In this document: piece after piece, positions 7,717 through 27,157 of the stretch
Layout of the letters: every line of letters starts with the position of its first letter
How positions within the stretch are numbered: the first letter of the stretch is position 1
Assembly (NCBI RefSeq): GCF_000025945.1
Contig: NC_006138.1
Span: 1,560,001 to 1,592,000, forward strand
DNA: 32,000 nucleotides
Direction of reading: 5' to 3'
Source: Desulfotalea psychrophila LSv54
GTDB lineage: Bacteria; Desulfobacterota; Desulfobulbia; Desulfobulbales; Desulfocapsaceae
Notes under the pieces: model-generated
The model's database searches: none
Seen by the model: only the letters and a program-made list of their open reading frames with translations
What the model was told of the DNA's origin: nothing
Translations under genes and position numbers: made by a program

Positions 7717-7760
7717 GAAGTCTGTAAAGAACGGATGTTGATTTTCTGGCCTCTGTTGCT

Positions 7761-8302: not shown

Positions 8303-8416
8303 GGTTGGCAGGCACCTGGAAAAGGAGGTGAGCCATCCCCGTATAAGTGGCTTTAGTTACATCTTTATCTGATTGATTAAGCAAGGAATTTTTTGAATTT
8401 AAAAGGAGAAAAAATT

Positions 8417-8635: not shown

Positions 8636-8823
8636 GAGCAGTGACTCCAGAACGTTGGTTCGTTCAGGTCTCGGGTATCCGGCCCGAGGTCTGAATCGGA
8701 CTTAAAGGTAAAGGTGTCTGTCTATGATTTTTGTAATTCGGCCCAACCTCTCATTGGAGCCATTACTGTGAATTCTGTGGACACTTTACTTAATTATTTG
8801 TGGAATTCATCATGAAGAACATA

Positions 8824-8883
8824 ATCCAACATTGAACGCGGACGGGCGAAAAAGCCCGACATCCGGTTAATTCAGCGTTAATA
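8824..8883. other. attC-like imperfect palindrome (candidate recombination site)
   Basis: ATCCAAC-ATTGAACGC-GGACGGGC-gaaaaa-GCCCGAC..-GCGTTAAT-A. ATTGAACGC pairs with GCGTTAAT leaving one extra-helical G. The reverse strand ends in GTTGGAT, which fits GTTRRRY. Confidence 0.3.
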
Positions 8884-9157
8884 TTGTCAAATCGAAAGGC
8901 TTTGCTCAATGCTTCAAGTTGAAATTTATATTGTAGGTTACGGATCTCGAATCTAGTCTCTTGTAGGCTGTTTGTCGACGTTTTCAAGGCCTGCCTGGCA
9001 TTTATTTGAGCTGTTCAAAGGGGAGGATTAGTGATCGTCCGAGATCTGGGACAAATTTAACGATTTAGAGGTGAAGAACAACTGCATTATGGCTTATGGT
9101 GCAGGCCTGTATTGCTGGGCCTGTTAGGTGGAAAAGACCCAAAAGGGCGGAAGAGCA

Positions 9158-9601
9158 ATGAAAAAACAAATTATAGTTGTTCTGGTAAACTTATTATTAT
9201 TAACGGGGTGTGCGGGAACTATGTCTGAGCTGGGGATAAAAAATGGTGAGCTGACGCCGTGCCCGAAAACACCAAACTGTGTGAATAGTCAGGCGGTTGG
9301 AGAAAAACATTATATTCAACCTATCCGTTACGCAGGAACACGGCAGGAGATGCGAGTCCGTCTCTTGCAGATACTTGAGGCCGAAAAGCGAACAAATATT
9401 CTGACGGTTCAGGAGGATTATGTTCGAGTAGAATTTACGTCAGCATTGTTTCGATTTGTTGATGACGTGGAGTTTTATTTTCCGGAGGAGCAAAGCGGCG
9501 AGACGGTTATTTATGTTCGATCCGCTTCCCGGCTCGGATATTCTGATCTTGGTGCCAACCGGAAACGAATTGAGTGGATTCGAGGTGAATTTAATAAATA
9601 G
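9158..9601 (+). CDS. DUF1499 family lipoprotein
   Basis: Lipobox LLLLTGC and the hallmark PCPKTPNCVNSQ segment. ATG at 9158 follows GGAAGAG. Confidence 0.75.
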   Translation: MKKQIIVVLVNLLLLTGCAGTMSELGIKNGELTPCPKTPNCVNSQAVGEKHYIQPIRYAGTRQEMRVRLLQILEAEKRTNILTVQEDYVRVEFTSALFRFVDDVEFYFPEEQSGETVIYVRSASRLGYSDLGANRKRIEWIRGEFNK

Positions 9602-9741
9602 GTTTTAGACCTCTAGCGGCGTCGCTGAATAACGCTTGCCCAAGTTAGGTGCTTTCTTGCCGGTAACCCGGCAGCTCTTCACTGGTAGAGATGTTGCACT
9701 TATTATTTGAACTCAGCTTAGGGATTTTTAAAAGATATATC

Positions 9742-10284
9742 ATGAATAATTGGGATCAAGATAAATATCTAGAAGCGTGGAATTTTGCCTCTGCCATTCA
9801 TAATGGGCAAAAGATACCTGGAAGCGATATACCTTATATTAATCACCTTGGGCTCGTTGCAATGGAGGCGGTAGCAACTGTAGCCAATAAAAACATCCAA
9901 AATTCTAATATTCTTGTTTTGTGTGCGTTATTGCATGATTCTATTGAGGATACGGCAACGACCCATGAAGATATTAAAAAAATATTTGGCTCTGATATTG
10001 CTGATGGCGTTTTATCGCTCACTAAAAATAAAAAATTGCCTTCCAAGGTTGAACAAATGCTGGACAGTATTGCTAGAATAAAAACTCAACCTAAAGAGGT
10101 GTGGATGGTTAAGTTATGTGATCGAATCACGAATTTACAACCACCGCCAAGGCACTGGAACAAAGAAAAAATTGGCAAATATCAAAATGAAGCTCGCCTT
10201 ATATTAGAGAAATTAGGAGAGGCAAGCCAGTTTCTTGCAGAAAGATTAAAAATGAAAATTGATGCATATGACCAATATTTATAA
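9742..10284 (+). CDS. Stand-alone HD-domain protein of the RelA/SpoT hydrolase type (small alarmone hydrolase-like)
   Basis: PYINHLGLVAMEA...LLHDSIEDTATTHEDIKKIFGSDIADGVLSLT matches the (p)ppGpp hydrolase HD motif layout. About 180 aa, with no synthetase domain. Confidence 0.7.
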   Translation: MNNWDQDKYLEAWNFASAIHNGQKIPGSDIPYINHLGLVAMEAVATVANKNIQNSNILVLCALLHDSIEDTATTHEDIKKIFGSDIADGVLSLTKNKKLPSKVEQMLDSIARIKTQPKEVWMVKLCDRITNLQPPPRHWNKEKIGKYQNEARLILEKLGEASQFLAERLKMKIDAYDQYL

Positions 10285-10292
10285 AAATCATA

Positions 10293-10360
10293 GGCCCTGT
10301 TGCATAAATTATGAGGGAAAAAAATCAGCTCTTCTCTACTCCATCTCATCTGCTTATAGC
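10293..10360 (+). mobile_element. Partial MITE copy (one terminal repeat plus ~50 nt)
   Basis: ggccctgttgcataaattatgagggaaaaaaatcagctcttctctactccatc aligns with the left end of the full copy at 20623. I found no matching right end. Confidence 0.5.
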
Positions 10361-10807
10361 ACTCTTTGCTGTCCGCGGCACCATCGCCTGATATCTGTTT
10401 AATGCGACGACGAAGAGGGTTCAATAAGGGTCTCAAGGCCTTGGCATCACGAACTGACTTTATTGGAATTTCACTTAGGCGATTAGTTTCTGTATCAATA
10501 GCAAGGTGAAATTTGTGTCAAATTCTATGCCTTGCAGCTCCCTCTTCTTCATCTATCTTGCCCGTGCTTTCCGTCCTGCCCTATGATTATTAACTTCCCT
10601 TGGCCAGGCTGGTGAGACTTGAACTTGACTGCTTGAGCTCGATTGCATTGTCATGCTTCGTCCTCTCAATCCAGGTTGTTCAGTGTTGGACCAATTTTTG
10701 CTAACTATTCCAGTGAAATGTGGAGGGTGAGTCTGAATGATAGTTTCTGCAGAGAAAAGTATTGATTCTTTGTGTTTTTAAAATAATTTACATATAATTT
10801 TTTTATG

Positions 10808-10822
10808 AGTACTTAAAGTACT
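10808..10822. promoter_or_regulatory. Perfect 15-bp palindrome AGTACTT-A-AAGTACT upstream of the binding-protein/sensor operon
   Basis: Read directly, in an AT-rich region about 220 nt upstream of the ATG at 11045. A further AAGTAC half-site lies about 20 nt downstream. Confidence 0.25.
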
Positions 10823-11044
10823 ATAGCAAAAAGCCTAAAAGTACAGGGGATTTTTATGATTTCTTCAGGCGATTTTCAAACCAAAACAATTCGCTTATCC
10901 TTCCCTTTTGCTACCATGTCTCATCTACCCCTTCGCGCATCTTCATACCGTAGAGGCTTGTTGTGGGTATACAAATTATAAAATAATATGAGCTTTTAAA
11001 ATCATTGTCTATCCTTTTGCCTACGTTTTTAAGGAGAGCCCTTA

Positions 11045-12046
11045 ATGGAGCAGAACCGTAATCCTCTTGTCCATATCTACAGAGTAGCAACAGAGATATT
11101 TTTTATTGCCCTGCTCATCTGCTTCTCAGCAGCCCTATCCCTTGCTGCTAAACATGTCCGACTCGCATTGCAATGGTACCCGCAGGCACAATTTGCCGGC
11201 TATTACATGGCGCACGAAAAAGGAATATATGCCTCTCATGGTCTTGAGGTGGAAATACTTCCTGGCAGTGCAAATATGAATGGTTGTGAAAAAGTTCGCC
11301 TGGGAAAAGCAGAATTTGCTACAGCATTTTTATCTGATGCTTTGCAACTGCGCTCTCAAGGTGTACCTCTTGTTAATGTTGGTCAGTTTGTGCAGCGATC
11401 TGCGCTTATGCTGGTGGCCCGTAAGGATTCGGGGATAAAGACTATTCATGACCTTGATGGAGCCAGGATTGGCACCTGGGGTGAGGACTTTTGTCTGCAG
11501 CCTAAAGCCCTGTTCAAGCGTGAGGGGTTGAATGTGACACTTGTCAGGCAATCTCAGTCGTTTGAGCTGTTCATGCGCGGCGGCATCGATGTGGGTTTGG
11601 CTATGTGGTACAACGAGTATCATCGCTTGCTCTCCTATGGCTTGAATGAGGATGAGATGACCATCTTCTTTTTTAGCGATTTGGAGATGAATCTGCCAGA
11701 AGACGGAATTTACAGTCTGGAGTCTACCTTTAACGAATCTCCAGAGACTGCCCAAACGCTGGTGGAGGCGACTGCCGAAGGTTGGTTGTACGCCTTTGCT
11801 CACCCTGAAGAGACTGTCGACACCATGCTTCGCATCATGAAAGAGAGCAAGGTCAAGGCCAATAGAGCCCATCAAACATGGATGCTGGACCGCATGAAAG
11901 ATCTTCTCTTAGTCAAAGGGCAAAAGCAATTAAAGACGATACTGAAAGAGAGCGATTTCATTCGGACCCAAGAGGTGCTGCGCTTTCCAGGAGGCAAGCA
12001 GTCAGAGTTGATATACCAGGATTTCTACAAAGGAGACCTGCAATGA
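11045..12046 (+). CDS. NMT1/THI5-like (SsuA/TauA-type) substrate-binding protein, membrane-anchored
   Basis: N-terminal TM helix, then LQWYPQAQFAGYYMAHEKGIYASHGLEVEILPG, typical of this binding-protein fold. Its stop overlaps the next gene's start (ATGA). Confidence 0.75.
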   Translation: MEQNRNPLVHIYRVATEIFFIALLICFSAALSLAAKHVRLALQWYPQAQFAGYYMAHEKGIYASHGLEVEILPGSANMNGCEKVRLGKAEFATAFLSDALQLRSQGVPLVNVGQFVQRSALMLVARKDSGIKTIHDLDGARIGTWGEDFCLQPKALFKREGLNVTLVRQSQSFELFMRGGIDVGLAMWYNEYHRLLSYGLNEDEMTIFFFSDLEMNLPEDGIYSLESTFNESPETAQTLVEATAEGWLYAFAHPEETVDTMLRIMKESKVKANRAHQTWMLDRMKDLLLVKGQKQLKTILKESDFIRTQEVLRFPGGKQSELIYQDFYKGDLQ

Positions 12047-13977
12047 GAATAAACGGAATCGCCTTTCGGCTGGCGTCACTCACCCTGGCCTTTTCCACCC
12101 TGATTTTTGCCGTTATTATTGGCTATAATTATACAGTTTCACGTGGAATTATTGAAGATCTTGCTGAAGATCGGGGCACCCTTTTAGCCGCATCAACAGG
12201 TCAGCGAATAGCTGCAGTGCTGAACTCTATGGAAAAGGTTGCCGACTCTATTGCCTTTTCCCTTGAGGATGGCAACCTCAATGAAAAACGGCTCCAGGAA
12301 CTGGGGACGCAGGTCCTCATGAATAATCAGGAAATTTTTGGGACTGCCATAGCATTTGAACCCTACGGATTTGATCCGGAAAAGCTGTATTACGCCCCCT
12401 ACTCTTTTCGCTCACAGAACAAAATATCGTCCACCAACCTTGGCAGGCCGGGTTATCAGTATTTTTATATGGACTGGTATCAGTTGGCAAAAGAGTTGGA
12501 AAAATCGATTTGGACTGAACCCTACTTCGATACCGGAGGGGGGCATCAGCTTATGTCCACCTATTCCGTTCCCTTTTACCGTAAGGATGGAAAAGAAGAG
12601 GTGCTGGCGGGAGTGGTTACGGCTGATATCTCTCTTGACTGGATGCAGAAGCTGATAGCTGAGATCAATACAAATGAAACCGGCTATGTTTTTTTGCTTT
12701 CGCGCTACGGTACATACATTGCCCATCCCAATGCAAAGGTGGTGATGAACGAGACGATCTTCACCTCCGCTGAAAACCAGGGACAACCTCTTCTTCGTGA
12801 CATAGGGAGACGGATGGTTGCGGGCGAGTCTGGAGTTGAAGAACTGGCAGATTTACCTTTAACCGGGGACAGCTTTCTCTACTTTACCTCTTTACCTGAG
12901 CAAGAGTGGTCCATTGGGGTTGTTTTTCCAAAACAGGAGATGTTTGCCGGGGTAGCACGTTTGACCAAAGAGGTCGTCACCTTGGCTGTTCTTGGCTTTG
13001 TAGCTCTAGCCCTGCTCCTGATCTATCTTTCCTGTAAAATCACCCGTCCTCTTCGAAGTCTTACCGGCTCGGTAAATGACATTGCCTCTGGTAATTTGGA
13101 TGTAGATCTGCCTGCTGTTGTCGCCCAGGATGAGGTTGGCGAACTGACAGGATCAATTATAACCATGCGTGATTCCCTGAAACAATATATCGCTAACCTG
13201 ACGGAAACTACCGCGGTTAAAGAGCGCATCGAGTCTGAGCTTCGTATTGCCCATGATATTCAGATGTCTATTCTGCCTAAGCTCTTCCCGGCATTTCCCA
13301 ATAGATCTGAATTTGATATTTACGCAAGCATTGAGCCAGCAAGGGAGGTCGGTGGCGATCTCTATGATTTTTTCTTCATTGATGAGAATCGGTTCTGCTT
13401 TCTGGTGGGTGACGTCTCTGGTAAGGGCGTACCGGCTGCGTTCTACATGGCTGTCACCAAAACTCTGCTTAAGGTGGTCGCTGAAAGGGGGCTTAATCCG
13501 GGTGAAATACTGGCGAAGGTTAATAATGATCTGGCCGAAGATAACGATGCCTGTATGTTTGTCACCCTGTTTTTGGCGGTGATTGATATTGGTACTGGAG
13601 AGGTGCTTTATGCCAATGCAGGTCATAACCCGCCCCTCTTTATACCTAAGGGTGGAAAAGCAGAATGGATACCTCCATTAAACGAGCTGGTGGCAGGTGC
13701 AATGGAGGATTCTGTTTATACAACTAAATCTATGACCATGCAGCCCGGGGATACCCTCTTTATCTATACCGACGGGGTCACTGAAGCCATGGACAGTAAA
13801 CAGAGCCTCTATTCAGATGATCGTTTACTTACAGAAGTAGACCGCTGTAGCGGCCTTGCTGCGAAGCCGTTCATCCATGCCATCGATGACTCCATAAAAG
13901 CATTTACCGGTGGGGCCGAGCAATCGGACGATATAACCATGCTTGCCATGCAGTTTCTTGGCAAAAAGAATATTTAA
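12043..13977 (+). CDS. Sensor protein: Cache-HAMP-PP2C (SpoIIE/RsbU-type) serine phosphatase
   Basis: ATG at 12043 (MRINGIAFRLASLTLAF...). A periplasmic Cache-like segment (YYAPYSF...TEPYFDTGGGHQLMSTYSVPFY...GYVFLLSRYGTYIAHPN) is followed by a second TM helix, a HAMP region (RPLRSLTGSVNDIASGNLD), then AHDIQMSILP...GGDLYDFF...VGDVSGKGVPAAFYMA...GHNPP...TDGVTEA...DDITMLA. Confidence 0.85.
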   Translation: MRINGIAFRLASLTLAFSTLIFAVIIGYNYTVSRGIIEDLAEDRGTLLAASTGQRIAAVLNSMEKVADSIAFSLEDGNLNEKRLQELGTQVLMNNQEIFGTAIAFEPYGFDPEKLYYAPYSFRSQNKISSTNLGRPGYQYFYMDWYQLAKELEKSIWTEPYFDTGGGHQLMSTYSVPFYRKDGKEEVLAGVVTADISLDWMQKLIAEINTNETGYVFLLSRYGTYIAHPNAKVVMNETIFTSAENQGQPLLRDIGRRMVAGESGVEELADLPLTGDSFLYFTSLPEQEWSIGVVFPKQEMFAGVARLTKEVVTLAVLGFVALALLLIYLSCKITRPLRSLTGSVNDIASGNLDVDLPAVVAQDEVGELTGSIITMRDSLKQYIANLTETTAVKERIESELRIAHDIQMSILPKLFPAFPNRSEFDIYASIEPAREVGGDLYDFFFIDENRFCFLVGDVSGKGVPAAFYMAVTKTLLKVVAERGLNPGEILAKVNNDLAEDNDACMFVTLFLAVIDIGTGEVLYANAGHNPPLFIPKGGKAEWIPPLNELVAGAMEDSVYTTKSMTMQPGDTLFIYTDGVTEAMDSKQSLYSDDRLLTEVDRCSGLAAKPFIHAIDDSIKAFTGGAEQSDDITMLAMQFLGKKNI

Positions 13978-14001
13978 TAGAAGGATAACTGTTGGGCTCC
14001 C

Positions 14002-14160
14002 GATTGGTTGGCAAGCTTATGTAGTATGGGGAAGGGGAGAAGCATAGCCTCTCCCTGCGGGTGGTCTGCTCTGCTCATCAGGCAGTCGCGGCAGAAGCAG
14101 ATTACTCTGGAGGGGACGGGTATCGCGTCACAGGCGCGGCTTAGCGCGTCCTGCCCATGC
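14002..14160 (+). repeat. Dispersed repeat family R2, copy 1
   Basis: gattggttggcaagcttatgtag...ggcagaagcagattac is colinear with 23128-23292 (gattggttggcgaagattatgcag...ggcagaagaaacagattgttac). The spacing between the two anchors is 88 versus 90 nt. Confidence 0.4.
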
Positions 14161-15214
14161 CGCTGTTCGACAGGCTTTCCACTTCTTTAAAGAAAATCCG
14201 TTGCCGTTCGAGGAGTTCCAATGGTCTGTCCACAGGGGTCATGTGGGCGCTTCCCTCTATGATGTAATACTGAGGATTATTGGCAAATCCAGACTGCCAT
14301 TTTGTATAGGCTGGCGTACACAGATCGTCGCTTCCGCAAGTCATAAGAATAGGAACATTCAATTTGGACAGTTGCAAGGTTACGTCGATCGTTTTTAGCG
14401 TTCCCAGCACATTCAATTCCGAGCCGCTGGCAACCATAGTGTCGTGGATTGCGGCACTTCGTGCGGCAATCAATTTCTGCATTGCCTTAGGTAATGGCCA
14501 GGTGTGGGTAACATGCTTCTTACTGAACTCCAGGCAAGCTGCGTCGTAGTCGTTCTTTGTTCCTAAGCCCCTCAACTCATAATCATCTATCACCTGTCCG
14601 CCTTTTCCATTGAGGCAGCTCAAGCCCTGCTTAAGTGCCGGGGCAACATGAGTGCTGTAATAGGGAAAACTCAGTATTGGGCTATGGAGAGAAATGGACA
14701 ATATGCCGGTGGGGTGTTTGGCAGCAAATCCGACAGCCAGAGTGGTTCCCCATGAATGACCAATTAAATGGTACTTCTTCAAGCTCAGACCATCCCGAAT
14801 CGCTTTCACCTCAGCAAAATATCGTTCTGCAGTCCACAGGGACGGATTCTCCGGCCGCTCTGATTTTCCGCAGCCCAGTTGATCGTAGAAGATTACAGGG
14901 CGTTCATCACTCAATGCCTGAAACGCTACCAGATTATGATGATTTCCTCCGGGACCGCCGTGCAGAACCAAGGCTGGAGGGGCACTGCCGGAGCCAATTC
15001 TGCCGTACCATAATTTGTAGGTATGATCATTATAGGTGTAATCGATAAAACCTTCGCTATCATAAGCTGGTTCAGTTAAGATTTTGTCTATGAATGATTG
15101 CTCTTTATTCATGGTCTTTTCGTCTCGCGACATACAGCCGGTCATCATTACTATAATTAAGGTACAGAATACGCTCCAACATAACAAACATCTATGACTG
15201 ATTATGTATTTCAT
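14141..15214 (-). CDS. Prolyl aminopeptidase-type alpha/beta hydrolase (peptidase S33), probable lipoprotein
   Basis: LVLHGGPGGNHH, FYDQLGCGKSERP and the nucleophile elbow GHSWGTTLA. Lipobox-like IIVMMTGC. ATG at 15214 follows AGAGGG; the track start at 15232 is a TTG. Confidence 0.8.
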   Translation of the reverse strand: MKYIISHRCLLCWSVFCTLIIVMMTGCMSRDEKTMNKEQSFIDKILTEPAYDSEGFIDYTYNDHTYKLWYGRIGSGSAPPALVLHGGPGGNHHNLVAFQALSDERPVIFYDQLGCGKSERPENPSLWTAERYFAEVKAIRDGLSLKKYHLIGHSWGTTLAVGFAAKHPTGILSISLHSPILSFPYYSTHVAPALKQGLSCLNGKGGQVIDDYELRGLGTKNDYDAACLEFSKKHVTHTWPLPKAMQKLIAARSAAIHDTMVASGSELNVLGTLKTIDVTLQLSKLNVPILMTCGSDDLCTPAYTKWQSGFANNPQYYIIEGSAHMTPVDRPLELLERQRIFFKEVESLSNSGMGRTR

Positions 15215-15640
15215 AAGCCCTCTGTCAAACAAATTGTTATCCGGTTTTCTGATATCATCTCAAAACACAATTTGCCAAGGCAGCCATGATACCGGTTTTT
15301 TAACCGGATATCGCGACAGAACCTCTTGCTCTGGATGTGTCTTTCGCTGCCAGAAATTTCTCACTTCCCTCTTGTCGAATTCGCTCAAGATCCACTGATG
15401 AGGTCGTTAATATATAGTGCTTGTGAAACTTCACCTCAAAGTATTTGCTTATGTCATTATCACCATTTTATGGGCTTGGCTTTTTTCACTGTTTGCGAGA
15501 CAATTCTATAAAACAGTCACTCCTAGATTTTAGCGAAACAATAGACCTAAGGCAAGGATCAGTCATGAAAACCAGCACAGCCCATTACAGGCCAGCAAGA
15601 CTTTCTCGGCAAGCCATCAGTCACATTATAGATAGTGGCA

Positions 15641-15807
15641 GGCCTTGTTGCTTAAATAGAAGTTGTCAGCATTGCTCGATGATGTTTTCTTATAACATAG
15701 AGCATTGGAGGATGCAGGGGAGACAGCAGGAGAAAGATCGAAAACTGGCCGGAGTGGGGCAGAGAGAGGAGCTAGTTTTTTTCCCTCATGCTTTATGCAA
15801 TAAGGCC
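15641..15807 (-). mobile_element. MITE, short variant (167 bp), inverted relative to the copy at 20623
   Basis: Ends are ggccttgttgcttaaat (left) and, reverse-complemented, ggccttattgcataaag (right). An internal 36-nt run gatgatgttttcttataacatagagcattggaggat is identical to the reverse complement of the 20623 copy. Confidence 0.7.
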
Positions 15808-15950
15808 ACAAGGCCATCCAACCGACTCCGCAACCTTGCCCATTTTTTGCAAAAGAGATAGCAATAAATAGGGCCACCTTGCCCCTTCATCGCTAATTTT
15901 AGCCAACTTTGCCTCTTAATGAGGCCTTATTTTTCGGAGATCATCAATAA

Positions 15951-16515
15951 ATGGATATATCAGCAATAGCAAAATTTATAAAATCACCTACCTTGTATAT
16001 TTTTCTTACCTGTATCATTAGTGGCATGTTCTTGTTTTTAACTGAATCTTTTTTAACTGATTTAGAGCTTATTTCGTTTGAGAAGGATTATAAAAAATGG
16101 GTTACTGTTGTCTTTCTTTTCTCGTTAGGTTTTTTTGTTTTGAACCTACTGAATATGGCATATAAAAACTATCAAAAGAACTACCAGGAAAAAATTGTTG
16201 AAGCTGAAATTAATGAACATAAAAAAGATTCTCTAAAAAAATAGTCGTGATGCCAAAGCCTTAACGTCAACTTGGGATGATCGCGAAAAATCGATATTAA
16301 GAGAGTTTTTTGTTCAAGAAAAAAAGATGATTGAAATGTCAAATGACGACCCTGTAGCTCTTGGTCTTATAGATAAGCACATTATAAGCCAAGTTGGCAA
16401 AAACGATACTGATAATAATATAATTGGTTTGACCTGCTACTTTGAAATTACTGAAGAGGCGAAAGAACTTATTGAACAGTTTGGGCTTGATAAAACCAAT
16501 CAGGTAAACAACTAA
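15951..16515 (+). pseudogene. Superinfection-exclusion protein B (SieB)-like gene split by a frameshift in an A7 tract
   Basis: ORF1 (15951-16244) is a two-TM N-terminus followed by a Lys-rich helix. The +1 frame is open from 16237 and reads KNSRDAKALTSTWDDREKSILREFFVQEKKMIEMSNDDPVALGLIDKHIISQVG, as in SieB-like proteins. The junction is the A-run at 16235-16241, and removing one A joins the two frames. Confidence 0.55.
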
Positions 16516-16723
16516 ATTCAGGCTTCGCAAGATTTTGAGCAGCGGATCATGGCTAAGATGCTATAAAATTTTTGAAATAAATATAACAAGGCAAATTAAT
16601 TCGGATTGGTAAAAGGCGCGGTGTTTTTAAGCCCTCCATGGGCATTTGTCTTGGGGTGGCACGGGGATAGTGCTGCTTCACGGGCAAGCAGCACCAAGCA
16701 TCTCTCGCCACTCTATAACAAAG

Positions 16724-18040
16724 TTACCCCAACTCTTCTGGCAGAATCATATTGAGAATAATGGCAATAAGAGCCGCCGGAAGAATTCCCGAAGTAAGGA
16801 GGATTTTGGTGGTTCCAGGAAGATGTTGTAGCGCTTCCGGAACTGCCTGAAAACCAAGTCCTATGGAGAGAGCCAGGGCGAGGATAAGCATATTACGCTT
16901 ATTCCATACCACATCACTGAGCATATTAATGCCAGCGGAGATCACCATACCAAACATCACAATCACACTTCCGCCTAAAACAGCAATGGGCATCGCCGAA
17001 ATAACTGCTCCCACCTTTGGTACAAGTCCCGCCATAATCAGAAAAAGAGCGCCAATAGTTACAACGTGACGACTCATCACCCCGGTCATGGAGACAAGGC
17101 CAACATTTTGTGAAAAAGAGGTATTGGGAAGGGCGCCAAAAAAAGCACCTAAGGTTGTGCCAAGCCCATCGGCCATGGTTGCCCCGGCAATCTCTTTTTC
17201 GGTTGCTTCACGGCCAGCGCCACCCTGGGTTATCCCCGAGACATCGCCCACGGTTTCAATGGCGGAAACAAAAGCCATCAGTGACATGGCAAAGACACTG
17301 CTTAGGCTCAGTTCAAAACCAAAGTGCAGTGGAGTAGGCATTGCAAACCAGGCTGCGTTTTCGATATGGGAAAAGTTGACCATTCCCATGGATATTGCGA
17401 CAAGATAGCCTACGATAAGACCAATAAGAACCGAGGCGGTGGAGAGCATGCCCCGTCCAAAAAATTTTAGGATCAGGGTAACAAAAAGAACGGTAAGCGA
17501 GAGTCCCCAATGTTGCATGGAGCCAAACTCCTCGGTTCCCATAAGCGGTACGCCACCTGCTGCATACTGAATACCGATAGGAATTAATGAAAGACCAATG
17601 GTAAGCACCACAATTCCTGTTACCAGGGGCGGCAAAAAATTACGGATTCGGCCAATAACTGTGCCAAGGAAAAAGTGAAAAATGCCACTGAGCATAATGC
17701 TTCCGTAAAGAGCCGAAATTCCAGCAATTTTAACCAAAGGGATCATGATTGGCAGGAAGGCAAATGAAGTACCTTGGACAATGGGTAGGCGGGCGCCAAC
17801 AGGACCAAGTCCCACGGTTTGCAAGAGGGTGGCGATACCAGCAAAGGTCATAACCATCTGAATCATATAGACCATCTCAGGAGAACCAAAGGTGAATCCT
17901 GCGGCCAGGGAGATGATAATTGCCGGGGTGATATTTGAGATAAACATCGCCAGTACATGCTGGATGCCAAGGGGGATAGCCAGGTGAAGAGGTGGAAGAT
18001 AATTGGGATCTTTCAACTGCTCTTTCTTTGTAAAGCTCAT
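16724..18040 (-). CDS. Nucleobase:cation symporter-2 (NCS2) family permease (xanthine/uracil-type)
   Basis: Polytopic ORF with NCS2-like segments (LGIQHVLAMF, FGALPNTSFSQNVGLVSMTGV). I place the start at ATG 18040 (MSFTKKEQ...). The track's upstream extension looks non-coding. Confidence 0.85.
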   Translation of the reverse strand: MSFTKKEQLKDPNYLPPLHLAIPLGIQHVLAMFISNITPAIIISLAAGFTFGSPEMVYMIQMVMTFAGIATLLQTVGLGPVGARLPIVQGTSFAFLPIMIPLVKIAGISALYGSIMLSGIFHFFLGTVIGRIRNFLPPLVTGIVVLTIGLSLIPIGIQYAAGGVPLMGTEEFGSMQHWGLSLTVLFVTLILKFFGRGMLSTASVLIGLIVGYLVAISMGMVNFSHIENAAWFAMPTPLHFGFELSLSSVFAMSLMAFVSAIETVGDVSGITQGGAGREATEKEIAGATMADGLGTTLGAFFGALPNTSFSQNVGLVSMTGVMSRHVVTIGALFLIMAGLVPKVGAVISAMPIAVLGGSVIVMFGMVISAGINMLSDVVWNKRNMLILALALSIGLGFQAVPEALQHLPGTTKILLTSGILPAALIAIILNMILPEELG

Positions 18041-18298
18041 AGTGTCAACCTTAAAAAAGCGGGAACATATTCGAAAGCTGACAAAATAGCGACACAAATT
18101 ACAATAAAACCCCTTTTTAACGAACAAAGTGAGCTTTCTGGGGAGGAACAGCTTTTAGCAACTGCGGAAAAACGGTCGACGACTTATTTTTCAGCCAGCG
18201 TCTTTTGGCGAATTCATGACGGGGAAGGAAAATAGGCGAGGAGTGTTATCCATTAAGATGATTCCGTATTCCTATGCTCCCGGGCGGAAGTATTAGCT

Positions 18299-18330
18299 CA
18301 TAATAATTTCTGACGGACAAAATTATTATG
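18299..18330. promoter_or_regulatory. Perfect 11-bp inverted repeat CATAATAATTT-N10-AAATTATTATG upstream of the NCS2 permease
   Basis: Read directly, about 260 nt upstream of the permease start. It could be an operator or an RNA hairpin. Confidence 0.3.
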
Positions 18331-18420
18331 TATTGGAGGTGTTAGGTACTTGTAGGGATATTGAGTAAAATGTCTTCTTGTGTTGTTTTGCTGCTGCTCC
18401 GTAAAAGGAACCCTGGAGTG

Positions 18421-18469
18421 AAATAAGGGCTTAACAGTTGGGTAAAACTGTTAAGCCCTTATTTGTTTT
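18421..18469 (-). terminator. Strong hairpin terminator downstream of rhlE (potentially bidirectional)
   Basis: AAATAAGGGCTTAACAG-ttgggtaaa-CTGTTAAGCCCTTATTT, a 17-bp perfect stem with T-rich flanks. Confidence 0.65.
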
Positions 18470-20622: not shown

Positions 20623-20905
20623 GGCCTTGTTGCATAAATCATGAGGGCAGAAAATCATCTTCCCTCCACTCCATTACATCTTAGCAAACAGTCTCTCGAA
20701 CAGGCATTCCAAAAGCGGTAATCTTGTTTAAAGCTTCAATCGCTTTTTTGTCCACCCAAAACGTTAACATCATTACTTCAGTGCCCTTATACTCCGACCA
20801 ATTTTTGATCTTTCCCCTGCTCTCTCCCCTGTATCCTCCAATGCTCTATGTTATAAGAAAACATCATCGAACAATGCTCGCAACTTCTATTTGTGCAACA
20901 AGGCC
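20623..20905 (+). mobile_element. MITE, long variant (283 bp) with 17-nt terminal inverted repeats
   Basis: The left end is ggccttgttgcataaat. The right end reverse-complemented is ggccttgttgcacaaat (16 of 17). It has no ORF of its own, and its right part overlaps the 3' end of ORF 20864-21322. Confidence 0.75.
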
Positions 20906-21322
20906 CCATGGGGTTAATAATTTTATTGTATTTATTGTGTATTTAGCACTTTTATTAAGTGCATTTATATCTCGTGTAACACAATTAATTAAACCCCACC
21001 CATCTTGGTGTTTCCAATAATTTGCTCCCGCATTTATTACTTTAATATACGAAAGCTCATCTGTTATTTTTTTGCCTAGCTTTAAAGCATCATCTTTTCT
21101 AACATCTAATTGAGGGTATGTGCTTGAAATATATCGTTGAATTAGTGAAAACCCTACACCGATAAAATATTCACCTTTGTCGCATAATCTATCTGAATCA
21201 GGATCAGCAGAAAGGCTTATTTCATTGTTAATAGCTTTAACTTTAAAATCAAGGTGTTCTAGCATTTCTGTAAGAAAATAGAAATCACTGTCAGCAAACT
21301 CTTTTCCAATTTTGAGATACAT
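20864..21322 (-). CDS. Hypothetical 152-aa protein; the last ~13 codons are supplied by the inserted MITE
   Basis: ATG at 21322 lies 31 nt after the attC-like core and is preceded by ACGGAG. The reading frame crosses into the MITE after ...LLTPWG. Contains ...INAGANYWKHQDGW... Confidence 0.55.
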   Translation of the reverse strand: MYLKIGKEFADSDFYFLTEMLEHLDFKVKAINNEISLSADPDSDRLCDKGEYFIGVGFSLIQRYISSTYPQLDVRKDDALKLGKKITDELSYIKVINAGANYWKHQDGWGLINCVTRDINALNKSAKYTINTIKLLTPWGLVAQIEVASIVR

Positions 21323-21353
21323 ATAACAGCTCCGTACACTGAACTATAGATAA

Positions 21354-21461
21354 GCCTAACGCTTCGTTAACTGGCGCATAGGTTGCTATTGTTTTTACTC
21401 TTTTTCTTTTGCAAAAACGATGACAGCCGTTTACGTGTCCGCGTTTAACGACTTGTTGTAT
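21354..21461 (-). other. attC-like site (minus-strand top strand)
   Basis: The minus strand reads (tg)ATACAAC-AAGTC-GTTAAAC...GTTAAC-GAAGC-GTTAGGC. That is an inverse core (6 of 7 to RYYYAAC) overlapping the stop codon, 5-nt spacers, L boxes pairing with one extra A, and a perfect GTTRRRY core. Confidence 0.55.
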
Positions 21462-22099
21462 CAATGGCTAATGATTTCAATTAGTATTTCTCCGTACTTA
21501 TTTTTTGTGTATATAACCCCACCTGAATCTTCTTCTCCAGCTACCCCACCATCAATGCCGCCGAAGCTTAAAAAACCTACTTTATAAAGCTCTCCAGCAG
21601 TAAGTTGGTCATTTGGACAACCATTTGAAAAATCAACGATGTACTTTAAATCACCATAAAATGAGCGCTCAATCATCAGGCATATACGAATAGTTTCATC
21701 ATAATTACATTGATTCATGAAAAGACGTTCAAATACTTTTGCGTACAATTCGAATTTCCTTGAATCATCAGCTTTTTCAATAAGAGATAATACAGTTTCT
21801 CCAAATCTTTCTCGTTGTTCAGCCTCAAGCATTTCCTCAGCAATAAACCGAAGCCGCGCCTCCTCATTAGTTTTATTTAGCTCAGATAGGAAACGGATAA
21901 GTTTTTTTACATACTGCCTTTCTTTTACCGCAATACCAGTCTTGAAAATAGCTATGGCAGAACCTACTATTGGAATGTCCTTTAAAAAACCATTTTCCAA
22001 TACGGAATCTACCGCTATCTCAGCTAGGTTAGTTCCAGTACCTTCAAGCTTTTGTCCCATAGTTTGGACTATCGATTCTTCTAATTTCAATTCACTCAT
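21461..22099 (-). CDS. Hypothetical 212-aa protein
   Basis: ATG at 22099 lies 32 nt after the preceding attC-like core. No family recognised (…FLKDIPIVGSAIAIFKTGIAVKERQYVKKLIRFLSEL…). Confidence 0.6.
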   Translation of the reverse strand: MSELKLEESIVQTMGQKLEGTGTNLAEIAVDSVLENGFLKDIPIVGSAIAIFKTGIAVKERQYVKKLIRFLSELNKTNEEARLRFIAEEMLEAEQRERFGETVLSLIEKADDSRKFELYAKVFERLFMNQCNYDETIRICLMIERSFYGDLKYIVDFSNGCPNDQLTAGELYKVGFLSFGGIDGGVAGEEDSGGVIYTKNKYGEILIEIISH

Positions 22100-22131
22100 A
22101 GTAACTCTAGATTTAAGTTATTCACTTATGG

Positions 22132-22198
22132 ATATAACGCTAAGTTGAGCGGCGCCGATTACGGCGTTCGAGTGCAGGGCGCGAACGCACTGTTAGCC
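22132..22198 (-). other. attC-like site (best example)
   Basis: The minus strand reads GGCTAAC-AGTGC-GTTCGCGCC...GGCGCCGCTCAAC-TTAGC-GTTATAT. From memory, this is the same box and spacer architecture as classical attC sites such as attC-aadA7 (GTCTAAC-AATTC-GTTCAAGC...GCTTAAC-TCAAGC-GTTAGAT). Confidence 0.6.
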
Positions 22199-22375
22199 TG
22201 CACTTAAAACTGGGCTTATTTCGCTCTCCCTAGTGGTTATTGACAGGCCAGCATCATCTTTCAGTTTGATAGGTTTAGTCGAATAGCACATTTACCATAT
22301 GCCTAACATTGATTGATATCGAAAAAAGACTTTTTATAACATATTGTTGGCCTAAAGATGCTGTTTTTTAGTTGA

Positions 22376-22445
22376 CCCAAACAGTAGGTTCGCGCCCTGG
22401 TTCGAGTGCTGCTTTCAGTCGAGCAGCTCGAACGACTGGTTAGAT
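22376..22445 (-). other. attC-like site with a degenerate 3' core
   Basis: The minus strand reads ATCTAAC-CAGTC-GTTCGAGCTGCT...AGCAGCACTCGAAC-CAGGGC..., then GTTTGGG. The inverse core is perfect and starts 4 nt after the stop at 22450. The R-prime side is irregular. Confidence 0.4.
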
Positions 22446-22449
22446 GTTT

Positions 22450-22958
22450 TTATAATTTATCTGGTTTTTTAATCATTTCTTTTTCATACTGTTGAATTAG
22501 ATTTTTATTTATACATTCTTGTACATTACGAGTAAGAGAATATAAGTTTTTTTCTGATCTAATAGGCAAATCTAAAGCAAATTTAGTTAAATGTACTGAC
22601 AGCGTTTTGTGATTTTTAGATTTTAATTGTAACGTTAGGTTAGATTTTTTTTTTCTAAATGACAAATTATTTCATACTGATGTTGTCTTTTTTGAAACTC
22701 TGGCTCTTCATTGGAGGAATTTTGCAAAACACTGTTAGATGCATGATAGTTTAATAAGACTTGATTGATTTGTATGAGCAATGCTTCATCTTGCTTTTTT
22801 TTATTAATTGACTCTTGATTTCTTTGGGCAAAAAACTTTCTCCCACAGCCAATAATGCACCCAGAATTATATATAGTAGTTCCATTTTTTACACCTAACA
22901 AGTTATTCTTCACTTTCCTGATATCATCCCAAATCACAATTTGATAATGCTTTTTCAT
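22450..22958 (-). pseudogene. Hypothetical gene split into 115-aa and 71-aa ORFs at an A10 tract
   Basis: The A-run (plus-strand T-run 22645-22654) sits exactly at the junction: ...ICHLEKKNLT-stop versus (TTG)SFRKKKSNLTLQLK... One extra A would give a single product of about 175-180 aa. I place the start at ATG 22958 (MKKHYQIV...). Confidence 0.45.
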
Positions 22959-23034
22959 CCATGATCCTGCCAGCCTTACCAATCAACTTACAGCACTCCA
23001 ACCTAAGCGCCCACGGCTACCCTCCTTACAAAGG

Positions 23035-24111: not shown

Positions 24112-24286
24112 GTGTACCCCCAAAACTCCATTCGCATAAAAAAATATCGTCCAGAAACGGGATATCTTTCAGCCGAAGTCAACCTGACAAGGCGATTTCT
24201 ATCCTGATAATATGCTGTTAACCTGACGCCATTCAATAAAGAGCAATAACCGGACAATCTCCCGCATGAGCCAGATTTTTTTCTGG

Positions 24287-24427
24287 CCTTGCCTGACCCA
24301 ACCGCCGACAAATACAGACCTGCATCCACTATGGATGATATCAAAAAAGCAACATCAACTCAAAGAGGTCTGGCTTCTGCAAGCATACAGCCACACCCGC
24401 AGACAGGGCTATCGGCCAACATCTTAT
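24287..24427 (+). repeat. ~150-nt repeat, copy B (inverted partner of 8153-8302)
   Basis: See copy A. Weaker similarity continues about 100 nt further on the outer side of both copies. Confidence 0.7.
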
Positions 24428-24740
24428 CCTCTCATAGGGAATATTCAGAAGCGCACCTCTAATCAGGTAACAGGAAGACGATGCAGGTTGTCTTATACGG
24501 CAGGGATAGGGAGAAGGCGGCCAGCATGCTGATTAAAATAGTATCAGGGGCAAGCAGGGGACTGTGCTACAGGTAGGTATGTTCATATAGCACAGAATTC
24601 TACATATGGAGGGCACAGGGTGCCAAAAGAAAGTAGGGCGCTCACAGGACCTCTTAGCGGGTATTACGAGGCAAAAGGATGCCCCAACCATGAACATTCT
24701 GTTGAGGTGTTGCTGGTCGGAGTGCCACCAAGGGAAAGTA

Positions 24741-24762
24741 TTTGTACCCCATTTTGTACCCC
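24741..24762 (+). repeat. Direct repeat TTTGTACCCC x2 (possible recombinase arm-type site)
   Basis: tttgtaccccattttgtacccc read directly. It lies between two tRNA-Pro 3'-end relics (24714 and 24947). Confidence 0.4.
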
Positions 24763-24847
24763 GTCGATATTAGCTCTTATTCCGTCTTATAATAATCCAA
24801 AACCTATATTGATACGCAAGAGGGATAAAAGATTTTTCAAGGGAGGA

Positions 24848-24984
24848 ATGGGGTGGGAGTGGGCTGTTTTTTGTGCATTTCCTGCACCCTCTGCACTTAA
24901 AACAAAAAAGGACCTACAGCAAAAACTGTAAGTGCTTGAAATCGTTTGTCGGAATGAGAGGATTTGAACTTTCGATCTGTTGTC
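24848..24984 (-). repeat. Diverged duplicate of the tRNA-Pro 3' half plus ~100 nt of its downstream flank
   Basis: atggggtgggagtgggctgttttttgtgca...ctctgcacttaaaacaaaaaagg...tgtcggaatgagaggatttgaactttcgatctgttgtc parallels 26448-26600 (gggtggggaggtgagaacgagtgttttttgtgcg...tggtcggaatgagaggattcgaacctccggccccttgtc). Confidence 0.6.
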
Positions 24985-25046
24985 TAGATCCCTGATAAGG
25001 GTGTGGCTTTTTGGGGGAATGGAAAAAATCCGTGAAGCAGATCTTT

Positions 25047-26168
25047 TTATTTGATGCTGATGAGTTGTAAAAAATCATTTTTGTAAGTGACTGGGTATCC
25101 TTTTGCTATTATCGTCTTTCCGCTTTGATCCCGCCATGTGTATTCCTTATTGTTACTGAGATAGAGATATACAAGTTTTGTGTATCCTTTAGCAGGTATT
25201 TGATATCTGTTGTAGGCACAGTAGGTATTGCCTTTGGCAGTTGTCCATGCACAGATTTCAGTGGTTTCTGCTAATGTTTTTATTTCCGGTTCCCTTTCTG
25301 CTTGGTGAAAAGCAGTTTTTTGAGATTTTTCTGTTATGTTTGGCTGTGGCGTGACATTTTGCACAGATGGTGCTACTTGAATTGAATGCTTAGTGGGTGG
25401 CTGTAGCTGTGAAAATCTTGGTAAAAAAAGGGGAATTGCTAAAAATATGACCAAGCAACATGTTGCAATTATAGTCTTTTGTTGCCATGTGAAGCTCTGC
25501 TTTTTAGGTTGATTCTGGTCATATTGTAATGTTGTCCCATCAATCAAAACTACCCCAGATAAGCGAGCAAACTCTATTGCTTCATGAGTAAATGTTCCTG
25601 ACGTGACTACAAATGCACCATCTAAATGGTGAGCCTGCATAACACCGTATATTTCACGGATAACAGTAACTCCTACTCGATAGACCTTCCAGTGTTTGCA
25701 CTGAACAATATATTTTTTCTCGTCTCTTTTTAGCCAAACATCAACCCCACCATCAGAACTTTGCTTGATGTTGTTTTTTACCCTGTAGCCTTGATTTTTA
25801 AAATATTCTCCTGTGAAATATTCGAAATCTTGCCATGTTAATTCGGTCACAGATTCTTTTTCAAAAGCAGTTTTAGTTGCTCTTTTGTAGAGAAATTTTT
25901 TGAACAATGACTGGATAGCTCCAATAACAAGAGAAAAAGGCACGACAACTTGTCCAAATATAGCAATTGTTTGTAGAACACGAGGCAGGATAGAGGCAAA
26001 GAGCCCCTCTATTCCCATTTGAGGCGGGGGAAGTGGTTTTATTGCAAAGTAATGCAGCAAGGTAAAAGAAAGAAGTGCACAAACAAGGTAAAGCCACCAA
26101 GGAAGGTCTGAGAAACAAAGGTCTATAAAATTTTCTAGTGTACTTTTTCTTTTATTTGACATAAGCAA
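25047..26168 (-). CDS. Membrane-anchored Mrr-like (Mrr_cat type) restriction endonuclease-fold protein with an extra TM helix and an unknown C-terminal domain
   Basis: N-terminal TM helices are followed by WQDFEYFTGEYFKNQGYRV...DGGVDVWLKRDEKKYIVQCKHW (a D...QxK nuclease core), GAFVVTSGTFT, a further TM helix (IIATCCLVIFLAIPLFL), and about 120 aa of unknown fold. Confidence 0.75.
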   Translation of the reverse strand: MLMSNKRKSTLENFIDLCFSDLPWWLYLVCALLSFTLLHYFAIKPLPPPQMGIEGLFASILPRVLQTIAIFGQVVVPFSLVIGAIQSLFKKFLYKRATKTAFEKESVTELTWQDFEYFTGEYFKNQGYRVKNNIKQSSDGGVDVWLKRDEKKYIVQCKHWKVYRVGVTVIREIYGVMQAHHLDGAFVVTSGTFTHEAIEFARLSGVVLIDGTTLQYDQNQPKKQSFTWQQKTIIATCCLVIFLAIPLFLPRFSQLQPPTKHSIQVAPSVQNVTPQPNITEKSQKTAFHQAEREPEIKTLAETTEICAWTTAKGNTYCAYNRYQIPAKGYTKLVYLYLSNNKEYTWRDQSGKTIIAKGYPVTYKNDFLQLISIK

Positions 26169-26341
26169 TCAAACGATTCATCCAGGTCGTGGCTGACCTC
26201 TAGCCAAGACTTTTCGATAGAAACTTTTCGCATTGTTAACTTGATTTCGTAGAGATCTTCCTCTGCAATGTTAGAAGAAAGTATGTCGGCAATACTCCCT
26301 ATCCCTTCAAGTAAACTTCTATTTATGGTTGAGAATTTCAT
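26135..26341 (-). CDS. Small acidic hypothetical protein (68 aa) overlapping the start of the nuclease gene
   Basis: ORF only, with an ATG start. Its 3' end overlaps the nuclease ORF by about 30 nt. Confidence 0.35.
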   Translation of the reverse strand: MKFSTINRSLLEGIGSIADILSSNIAEEDLYEIKLTMRKVSIEKSWLEVSHDLDESFDCLCQIKEKVH

Positions 26342-26512
26342 AGCCTAATAATATACATGTTGGAGCTATCCTGTCAATATATGGAGGAACGTTAAGTGTG
26401 GATGAATATTTTCTATAGGGTGGTTAATACGGGTATTTTGAAGAAACAATGGGTGGGGAGGTGAGAACGAGTGTTTTTTGTGCGTCCTCTGCACTTATCT
26501 TGCACGTAAAAC

Positions 26513-26552
26513 AAAAAAAGGGCCTTAAAAGCTTTATCAGCTCTTAAGGCCC
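26513..26552 (-). terminator. Rho-independent terminator of tRNA-Pro
   Basis: The minus strand reads GGGCCTTAAGAGCT-gataa-AGCTTTTAAGGCCC followed by TTTTTTTGTTTT. Confidence 0.8.
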
Positions 26553-26563
26553 TATGCAAATAA

Positions 26564-26641
26564 TGGTCGGAATGAGAGGATTCGAACCTCCGGCCCCTTG
26601 TCCCCCAGACAAGTGCGCTAACCAGGCTGCGCTACATTCCG
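26564..26641 (-). tRNA. tRNA-Pro (anticodon GGG)
   Basis: The minus strand reads CGGAATG-TA-GCGC-AGCCTGGTTA-GCGC-A-CTTGT-CTGGGGG-ACAAG-GGGCC-GGAGG-TTCGAAT-CCTCT-CATTCCG-A-CCA. This is a full cloverleaf with a 7-nt anticodon loop (GGG at positions 34-36, G37) and an encoded CCA. Confidence 0.92.
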
Positions 26642-26687: not shown

Positions 26688-27059
26688 TTAGTCCTTATCG
26701 AGGAGTTTTTTCAGGTCGTGCATCTCCCTTTGCAAATCCTGTAAATTTTCTGAATATTTGGCAAATGGCTTTGGCCTTTGGTGGGCGATGAGAGGGGCGG
26801 TGATGGCCAGCTGGGAAGGTGTTGCAAAGAACCTGCTGTGTGCCTTGGTAATGGTGAAAGCACGGTGATGAAGGAGATCCTGGGGATGGAGAATGAGATT
26901 TATCTTTTCATGGGGTTAGAGGCCTTGACCTGAGCGGTTAGGTCTGGAGTGAGAGCAGGAAATTGAGACTTCCAGTAAGGCAGGACATGGGTGGAAGCCA
27001 GCAATTTTAGCTACCTCACCAATCTTAAAATATGGCTTAGTGGGGATTTTTATTGCCAA
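26688..27059 (-). pseudogene. MerR-family regulator (the type found downstream of ihfA), disrupted
   Basis: KPYFKIGEVAKIAGFHP matches a MerR HTH start. The expected next segment, HVLPYWKSQFPALTP, is readable only in the +1 frame. The original frame resumes at RPNRSGQGL, then hits TAA (26916-26918), then stays open for 75 more codons (PHEKINLILHPQDLLHHRAFTI...LKKLLDKD). Confidence 0.5.
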
Positions 27060-27157
27060 GGTCCATAAAAATCTGAAAAAAGGGATAATGAGCTTATTCG
27101 TTATCGGCAAAATAATTATACAGAAAAAAGAAGAGGTGGAGCAAGAGGGGGGAAACC

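Follow-up and report, generated by a model that had tools for sequence, protein, structure and literature searches.

DP1421 is a gene of Desulfotalea psychrophila LSv54 located in a 32,000-nucleotide stretch of its genome (NC_006138.1, positions 1,560,001 to 1,592,000 of the forward strand), which is referred to here as the window. Coordinates given without another locus or accession are positions within this window. The product of DP1421 is a new architectural form of an uncharacterised, widespread family of membrane-anchored Mrr nucleases, and it belongs to no named defence system. Its nuclease domain is predicted to be cytoplasmic and to be held between transmembrane (TM) helices, and its C-terminus is predicted to form a small outward-facing domain that is extremely rare among known proteins. 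By analogy with two membrane nucleases that have been studied experimentally, DP1421 might be a single-gene, envelope-located nuclease that acts against entering DNA, a reading that we hold tentatively and with slightly less than even confidence.

Architecture of DP1421

The open reading frame (ORF) occupies positions 25047-26168 on the minus strand, encodes 373 amino acids (aa) when read from a TTG codon, and is 100% identical to DP1421 (CAG36150.1). The RefSeq start is an ATG at 26162, two codons downstream, which yields a protein of 371 aa (WP_049785029.1), and an alignment of homologues shows that their N-termini agree with this ATG. The gene is divided into the following parts, for which AlphaFold2 (AF2) models were also used.

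25047-26162, minus strand: DP1421 coding sequence from the ATG start, a membrane-anchored Mrr_cat nuclease
25905-26099, minus strand: hairpin of TM1, a short proline-rich outside loop, and TM2 (hydropathy, lysine/arginine counts, AF2)
25524-25844, minus strand: Mrr_cat PD-(D/E)xK domain (PF04471), D-QxK variant, predicted cytoplasmic
25413-25475, minus strand: TM3, at about aa 230-250, with the highest hydropathy peak (2.47) and with lysine/arginine residues just before it
25266-25412, minus strand: predicted extracytoplasmic linker rich in proline, glutamine, and threonine, at about aa 251-299 (about 50 aa), with low AF2 confidence and no conservation
25050-25265, minus strand: C-terminal domain of about 70 aa with two conserved cysteines (search and alignment), predicted all-beta and extracytoplasmic

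Hydropathy analysis picks out three hydrophobic stretches, approximately aa 22-41, 62-86, and 230-250 (ATG numbering), and AF2 predicts helices at 22-41, 55-101, and 226-242. Lysine and arginine are concentrated at the N-terminus, behind TM2, and ahead of TM3, a distribution that puts the nuclease domain inside the cell and the C-terminal tail outside in the predicted topology. The initial annotation of this region, which was made from the letters of the sequence without database searches, described TM helices, an Mrr-type nuclease, a further TM helix, and an unfamiliar extracytoplasmic domain. This layout is borne out by hydropathy, by lysine/arginine counts, by Pfam, and by AF2.

The nuclease domain is readily detected. 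PF04471 matches aa 109-215 (TTG numbering) with an E-value of 5.7e-30 and a score of 104.2 bits against a cut-off of 21, and Mrr_cat and NA-iREase1 are the only Pfam families found in DP1421. In alignments of 9 and 17 sequences, E114, D137, D141, Q154, and K156 do not vary, and neither do several structural positions. We take the E/D/D/QxK residues to be catalytic, as in the D-QxK variant of the PD-(D/E)xK fold described for Mrr. The initial annotation staked its proposal on the presence of catalytic residues, and all of them are retained across the 17 sequences. The AF2 predicted local distance difference test (pLDDT) score of the nuclease core is mostly 82-95 and falls to about 53 at residues 131-140. 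Among the structures found by Foldseek with the nuclease model as the query, the catalytic domains of MspJI (E 3.5e-6), AF1548, AspBHI, and EndoMS match best. Judged from its residues, the DP1421 nuclease looks active. The full protein has no sequence match in the PDB and no match in NCBIfam, and a literature search found no paper on DP1421.

A widespread family with two TM helices, Mrr_cat, and a zinc ribbon

Residues 1-213 of DP1421 belong to the family represented by phrog_33422, which matches the protein with an E-value of 2.9e-36 over positions 5-213 of 220. Members of this family consist of two TM helices, an Mrr_cat domain, and a Topo-type zinc ribbon, and the family is annotated merely as "restriction endonuclease". 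A word-indexed search returned only eight relatives of DP1421, none of which covers the C-terminus. A scan of viral contigs added ten closer relatives of 270-330 aa, which are 31-43% identical to DP1421 over aa 1-213 (or 5-225). All ten have an N-terminal M-A-R-R-R-K..EDL sequence, an LPWW motif in TM1, a GQY.VP motif in TM2, Mrr_cat, and a zinc ribbon of the form CPxCG...FWGC..FPxC.

DP1421 resembles this family in its N-terminal M-x-R/K-R/K sequence, its LPWW and GQY.VP motifs, its Mrr_cat core with the E/D/D/QxK residues, and its occurrence as a stand-alone gene. Its nuclease domain is 46% identical to that of the closest 2TM-family relative compared. In contrast to the family, DP1421 has TM3, the linker of about 50 aa, and the extracytoplasmic domain of about 70 aa in place of the zinc ribbon, and neither a PF01396 match nor a CxxC...C..C motif is present.

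The family is cargo of prophages, islands, and conjugative plasmids, in which its genes stand beside integrases, restriction-modification, toxin-antitoxin, and accessory genes. Its module of two TM helices, Mrr_cat, and zinc ribbon is found on plasmids of Simplicispira, Alicycliphilus, Pseudomonas, Variovorax, Vibrio, Aeromonas, Nitrosococcus, and others, and these plasmid genes are uniformly annotated as "restriction endonuclease". The Simplicispira plasmid, which was inspected in detail, is conjugative and carries the family gene (WP_106448362.1) in the neighbourhood of MazEF, a methyltransferase with a helicase, and YhaV-PrlF. At one further locus (L011), a P4-type integrase gene is directly upstream of the family gene. 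Other neighbours include a large serine recombinase, HsdM/HsdS (type I), an AAA_15/AAA_21 ATPase, MazG_C, NA37 with RelA_SpoT, and Y-family polymerases. The mobile contexts of these relatives lend the idea of a defence function indirect support, as does one DUF4297-HerA locus described below. With typical members of the family as queries, the PADLOC models for ZorD, PDC-S02, and mREase_IV match the nuclease domain only, and a literature search found no study of an architecture that combines TM helices, Mrr_cat, and a zinc ribbon.

The C-terminal domain and its other carriers

The initial annotation described the C-terminus of DP1421 as one domain of about 120 aa and of unfamiliar fold. The fold is indeed unlike any that we could match, but the region is better divided into a low-complexity linker of about 50 aa and a conserved domain of about 70 aa. 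Of these two parts, only the latter aligns with its relatives P0011 and P0012; the linker does not.

These relatives come from a HMMER search with aa 256-373 as the query, run exhaustively against 1.84 billion representative proteins, which matched only three other proteins: P0011, P0012, and P0010. P0011 (371 aa, E 2.8e-9) lacks N-terminal TM helices; its Mrr_cat domain is followed by a zinc ribbon, a single TM helix, a linker, and the C-terminal domain. P0012 (182 aa, E 1e-4) has a short tail rich in lysine and arginine, one TM helix, a linker, and the C-terminal domain. In DP1421, P0011, and P0012 alike, the domain follows a TM helix and a linker and conforms to the motif C-W-x6-8-T-[FY]-C...G-[YF]-x-K-[LI]-V-x-L...K-x-Y-x-W...G...G-x-P.

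The third match, P0010 (2508 aa, E 1.7e-15), is not counted as homologous. Its score is the sum over 15 copies of a 23-aa motif, each of which reaches only about E 7e-4 in pairwise comparison. The protein contains 127-aa tandem repeats from about residue 640 and has weak similarity to fibre heads and to CBM_5_12, and the motif it has in common with the DP1421 domain is SxxKxYT[WF]xDxxGxxI[IV]AxGxP. The shared motif may have arisen by convergence, or it may reflect a very remote relationship to fibre-like beta structures.

Other searches with the C-terminal domain returned nothing. No match was found in Pfam (at E of 10 or below), among PHROG families, or to PDB sequence profiles, and a profile search of a collection of 5.8e9 was empty. 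Scans of viral and metagenome contigs added no further carrier. The Foldseek search that the initial annotation suggested was run against the PDB and BFVD, with no match below E 0.1.

The placement of the domain in P0011 argues that it lies outside the cell, because the single TM helix of this protein follows cytoplasmic DNA-binding domains, and this agrees with the topology predicted for DP1421. The lysine- and arginine-rich N-terminal tail of P0012 likewise points to an outward C-terminal domain. The conserved cysteine pair would fit a periplasmic disulfide.

P0011 is encoded directly after HerA, starting 11 nucleotides (nt) downstream of a DUF4297 (PADLOC 1e-33) and HerA (2.5e-171) gene pair in the same direction. 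DUF4297-HerA is a known defence pair. Given the short distance between HerA and P0011, the three genes may form a variant of the DUF4297-HerA system. At this locus (L005, positions 4983-11099 of PPCM01000209.1) and at a second one (L006), the codirectional genes are those for DUF4297, HerA, P0011, a radical-SAM protein, and an ORF of 106 aa. The radical-SAM protein has weak similarity to pVip, and an integrase fragment is located nearby.

At the locus L007 (positions 4115-5119), the P0012 gene is directly downstream of a gene for a CI-like repressor in an inovirus-like element that has a Zot/pI gene. The element also carries a pVI-like gene and a gene for a 456-aa protein with a signal peptide, perhaps an adsorption protein. 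The C-terminal domain resembles neither the pIII-like nor the other proteins encoded at this locus.

A position beside a phage repressor is typical of superinfection-exclusion genes. This classic slot, the carriage of the family on conjugative plasmids and prophages, and the Topo-type zinc ribbon raise the possibility that DP1421 serves a mobile element or has another role outside defence, for example, in entry or superinfection exclusion of competing elements, in competition between plasmids or phages, or in the uptake or turnover of DNA. Topo-type zinc ribbons bind single-stranded DNA, which is the form that enters the cell during conjugation or infection by filamentous phages. However, DP1421 itself lacks the zinc ribbon, and no competence or conjugation genes are adjacent to it in the window. 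The mechanism of such a role would overlap with that of an envelope-located defence nuclease, and present data do not separate the two. We consider a role of this kind unlikely.

DP1421 and P0011 are 28% identical in their nuclease domains and 36% identical in their C-terminal domains. Because the DP1421 nuclease is closer to that of the 2TM family (46%) than to that of P0011, while the C-terminal domains of the two proteins are more similar than their nucleases, a P0012-like module appears to have become attached to Mrr_cat nucleases on two occasions. On these comparisons, two independent fusions of the module with Mrr_cat seem to have occurred, and two separate joinings argue for a functional link between the nuclease and the module.

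Comparison with known systems

SNIPE is composed of an N-terminal TM region, DUF4041, and a nuclease domain of the GIY-YIG type, and it cleaves lambda DNA while this is being injected (Saxton et al. 2025, 10.1101/2025.11.03.685801). The protein becomes toxic when released from the membrane, and its variable adaptor regions sometimes mimic phage proteins (10.1101/2025.11.03.685801). Like SNIPE, DP1421 is a single protein whose cytoplasmic nuclease is predicted to be anchored in the inner membrane and which has a variable adaptor in the membrane or periplasm. The logic that we propose for DP1421 is also that of SNIPE, namely that DNA is cut on entry and that confinement to the membrane prevents self-damage. 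The two differ in fold, which is GIY-YIG in SNIPE and PD-(D/E)xK in DP1421, and DP1421 is predicted to be pinned at both ends of its nuclease. No DUF4041 or GIY-YIG match was found in DP1421 by Pfam, and no sequence similarity to SNIPE was detected.

The mycobacterial protein Mpr combines a membrane nuclease with the phage-derived domain DUF4352; oligomerisation in the membrane is required, and the defence it confers is non-abortive (PMC12596739). Mpr resembles DP1421 as a membrane nuclease whose C-terminal domain also is found alone in phage proteins. However, Mpr is a 3'-5' exonuclease with a different accessory domain, and there is no sequence relationship between it and DP1421. The parallels with SNIPE and Mpr are thus analogy, not homology.

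DP1421 shares its catalytic domain family and the D-QxK variant with Mrr/MspJI-type (Type IV) enzymes. In contrast to these enzymes, it is embedded in the membrane, has no Mrr_N or SRA-like domain, and gives no sign of dependence on DNA modification. The E. coli Mrr type is soluble and has an Mrr_N winged helix, whereas the N-terminus of DP1421 is a TM hairpin.

The initial annotation recognised no named system, and defence-database searches concur. The PADLOC models for Zorya ZorD, PDC-S02, and mREase_IV are similar to DP1421 in the nuclease domain only (E 6e-14 to 1e-6), and the ZorD model matches only in its last approximately 120 positions. A Zorya system has ZorA and ZorB in an operon with the helicase-nuclease ZorD, and no ZorABC genes occur among the neighbours of DP1421.

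A possible role at the cell envelope

How DP1421 might act against entering DNA can be outlined as follows. The nuclease domain would face the cytoplasm, pinned at both ends by TM2 and TM3, an arrangement that would keep it off the nucleoid and leave only membrane-located DNA within its reach. The outward domain might bind an envelope component or a part of an invading particle or phage. Binding would then either bring the enzyme to the entry site of foreign DNA or drive the oligomerisation that is required for cutting. In either case, phage or plasmid DNA would be cleaved at the membrane as it enters. Mrr/MspJI-type enzymes need oligomerisation to cut. A nuclease that works directly at the entry site in this way is at least as likely as the envelope-triggered abortive infection that was initially suggested.

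A broader extension of this idea is possible, if improbable. The two-cysteine domain could be a periplasmic module that recognises a component of a phage or pilus, or one of the envelope that is exploited for DNA entry. Its carriers with nuclease domains would then be transmembrane "receptor nucleases" made of one polypeptide, in which a ligand positions or dimerises the nuclease, and the family with two TM helices, Mrr_cat, and a zinc ribbon would represent an uncatalogued, widespread defence at the entry site.

Several observations weigh against a defence role at the envelope. The family of the C-terminal domain has only three members, the AF2 model built from these three sequences is all-beta with a pLDDT of 54, and a sensor or adaptor role for the domain is something that we purely infer. 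The topology of DP1421 is predicted from hydropathy, the positive-inside rule, and the conserved cysteines. The zinc ribbon that DP1421 has lost may be needed for DNA binding. No defence-database model spans the full length of DP1421, PADLOC matches being confined to the nuclease domain, and the window ORFs that were scanned contain no further recognisable defence gene and no integrase. Finally, two metagenomic relatives stand among ordinary-looking genes. A survey of homologues was proposed initially with both gene context and a small upstream ORF in view. Many homologues do occur among mobile, accessory, or defence genes, apart from the two just mentioned, but co-occurrence with the small ORF was not observed.

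A small ORF upstream of DP1421

The initial annotation noted an acidic ORF of 68 aa that overlaps the 373-aa ORF (TTG start) by about 30 nt, and both ORFs are present as it described them.

26135-26341, minus strand: acidic ORF of 68 aa, isoelectric point 4.8, candidate gene

The overlap with the nuclease start is 28 nt for the ATG or 34 nt for the TTG. A putative sigma-70-like promoter, TTGACA-16-TATATT, is found at 26377-26350 on the minus strand and matches the consensus at 11 of 12 positions. Because the usual spacing between promoter and start is about 7 nt, transcription from this promoter would begin at about 26341-26343, which coincides with the ATG of the small ORF. If translated, the 68-aa ORF would be read from a leaderless mRNA. 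The leader RNA shows no unusual degree of structure (z 0.47).

The overlap led to the proposal of a two-gene system, as in toxin-antitoxin or regulator-effector pairs, in which the 68-aa protein would restrain the nuclease through translational coupling and envelope stress would free the nuclease to kill the cell in abortive infection. In favour of this proposal, the two frames overlap by 28-34 nt, the ATG of the nuclease has no clear Shine-Dalgarno sequence, and the near-consensus promoter is located just upstream of the small ORF. Also, an ORF of this length arises by chance on the same strand in only about 5% of simulated 429-nt regions, and its in-frame codon log-odds (0.072) exceeds those of both other frames and compares with 0.038 for the nuclease. 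However, the 95th percentile for spurious ORFs is 0.136, and 0.072 is within their range. No homologue of the small ORF exists in 5.8 billion clusters, and no family match was found in Pfam, PADLOC, NCBIfam, or PHROG. The exact sequence is missing from a collection of 15 billion proteins, so neither annotation of the genome called the ORF with this start.

None of the examined relatives of either domain has an overlapping small ORF upstream, so the family works without a partner, and the co-occurrence of a partner gene across homologues that characterises type II toxin-antitoxin systems is not seen. The claim that the small ORF is a conserved partner, antitoxin, or regulator is not upheld. The ORF is probably not a functional partner of the nuclease and is no defining part of the system, and we regard a two-gene mechanism as quite improbable.

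The tRNA-Pro islet

DP1421 lies in an islet that begins at the 3' end of a tRNA-Pro(GGG) gene, which is located at 26564-26641 on the minus strand (ARAGORN; Rfam tRNA, 62.8 bits). The 3' part of the tRNA recurs at 24948-24984, 1618 nt away, as a 37-nt sequence with 81% identity. An exact 17-mer at the core of this repeat has 2 occurrences, compared with 0.07 expected. Alignment of both regions reveals that the full direct repeat is longer (26448-26616 versus 24847-25003) and about 73-81% identical. It contains about 50 nt of the 3' half of the tRNA, starting from the anticodon stem, then a terminator, and then about 65-80 nt more.

26448-26616, minus strand: proximal repeat copy, with a terminator-like hairpin of 15 pairs at 26519-26553
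24847-25003, minus strand: distal, decayed repeat copy, with a tRNA 3' fragment at 24948-25003 and a terminator-like hairpin at 24912-24933

In the distal copy, the T arm carries substitutions and the 5' half of the tRNA is absent. This copy marks the far boundary of the islet and is the likely end of the transcript. Between the repeats, the order is promoter, 68-aa ORF, DP1421, and the terminator-like hairpin within the distal repeat. The GC content (guanine plus cytosine) of the islet is 0.38, compared with 0.45 for the whole window. The initial description of an AT-rich islet bounded by a duplicated tRNA 3' end therefore holds in outline, although the islet is only modestly AT-rich and the repeat is longer than was stated.

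An empty-site comparison was possible with one related genome, the Desulfotalea sp. metagenome-assembled genome L038, whose PheT is 76% identical. Starting at about 31.9 kb in the window, the two genomes are collinear across pheS, pheT, and ihfA. Similarity between the DNA sequences drops out at a MerR gene, returns at tRNA-Pro, and ends exactly at the tRNA 3' end. About 110 nt that are common to both repeat copies are missing from L038. In this genome, the 3' flank of tRNA-Pro (L038 positions 11500-18442) contains IS3-type transposase fragments, a Lipoprotein_16 gene, a gene for a zinc phospholipase C-like protein, and a weak HEPN-like ORF, none of which is shared with D. psychrophila. Because the accessory content of L038 differs at this position, the 3' flank of tRNA-Pro is a variable hotspot within the genus.

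The islet holds only the two ORFs and no integrase gene, and a scan of window ORFs from 11 to 27.5 kb turned up no recombinase. Of the hallmarks of a tRNA-integrated island, DNA of foreign composition bounded by a repeat of the tRNA 3' end is present, as is a break in synteny, but an integrase is not. The islet, of about 1.4-1.6 kb, is best described as the remnant of an old integration from which the integrase has been lost.

This history suggests another explanation, in which DP1421 is a stranded and possibly non-functional fusion that has been kept by chance in a decayed islet. The lack of an integrase is consistent with this idea, as are the decay of the repeats to about 75-81% identity, the degenerate tRNA fragment in the distal copy, and the neighbouring MerR-family gene, which is a probable pseudogene. 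Also, the codon usage of DP1421 is atypical, and its exact architecture is known only from this protein. Against this explanation, the frame of 371 codons is intact in AT-rich DNA, all catalytic and family-invariant residues are retained, the C-terminal domain keeps both cysteines and its conserved core, and the unit is flanked by a near-consensus promoter and a terminator-like hairpin. A stranded remnant is improbable, slightly less likely than a role on behalf of a mobile element, and we continue to favour, tentatively, a nuclease that would act on DNA entering at the envelope.

Sequence around the islet

The MerR-family gene (26721-27068, minus strand) is located between ihfA and tRNA-Pro. 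Its similarity to MerR proteins extends over two frames and includes an in-frame stop, and the copy in the window is probably a pseudogene. The counterpart in L038 is intact (L038 positions 10943-11359, 138 aa, MerR_1 E 1.4e-21).

On the other side of the islet, a stretch of about 700-800 nt (24130-24846) between the distal tRNA fragment and a CxxCxxCC (PF03692) gene has no ORF longer than 103 aa and a GC content of 0.47. This stretch includes a tandem pair of GGGGTACAAA near 24745-24770 (minus strand). The possibility that it holds an integrase remnant is unsupported, as neither Rfam nor Pfam gives a signal there.

Farther away, positions 20800-23000 form a very AT-rich block, with GC content as low as 0.29. 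Searches of Pfam, NCBIfam, and PADLOC give no match for the three ORFs of this block, which are 152, 212, and 115 aa long. Foreign DNA may reach far past the islet. A 54-nt direct repeat with 78% identity is found at 15228-15281 and 22897-22950, with the copies separated by 7.7 kb. Both copies overlap an ORF start on the minus strand, the first that of an alpha/beta hydrolase (14141-15232) and the second that of an ORF without a recognisable product (22635-22982).

Implications

The use of membrane location to discriminate between self and incoming DNA has only just been demonstrated, for SNIPE and Mpr. Mrr_cat is a second, unrelated nuclease fold that is built into membrane proteins, which points to convergent use of the same principle. 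Plasmids and prophages commonly carry the family with two TM helices, Mrr_cat, and a zinc ribbon, but no PADLOC model covers its full length. As a candidate for single-gene defence, this wider family is experimentally more promising than DP1421 alone. The rare outward domain of DP1421 and P0011, in turn, offers a possible handle on what such enzymes sense.

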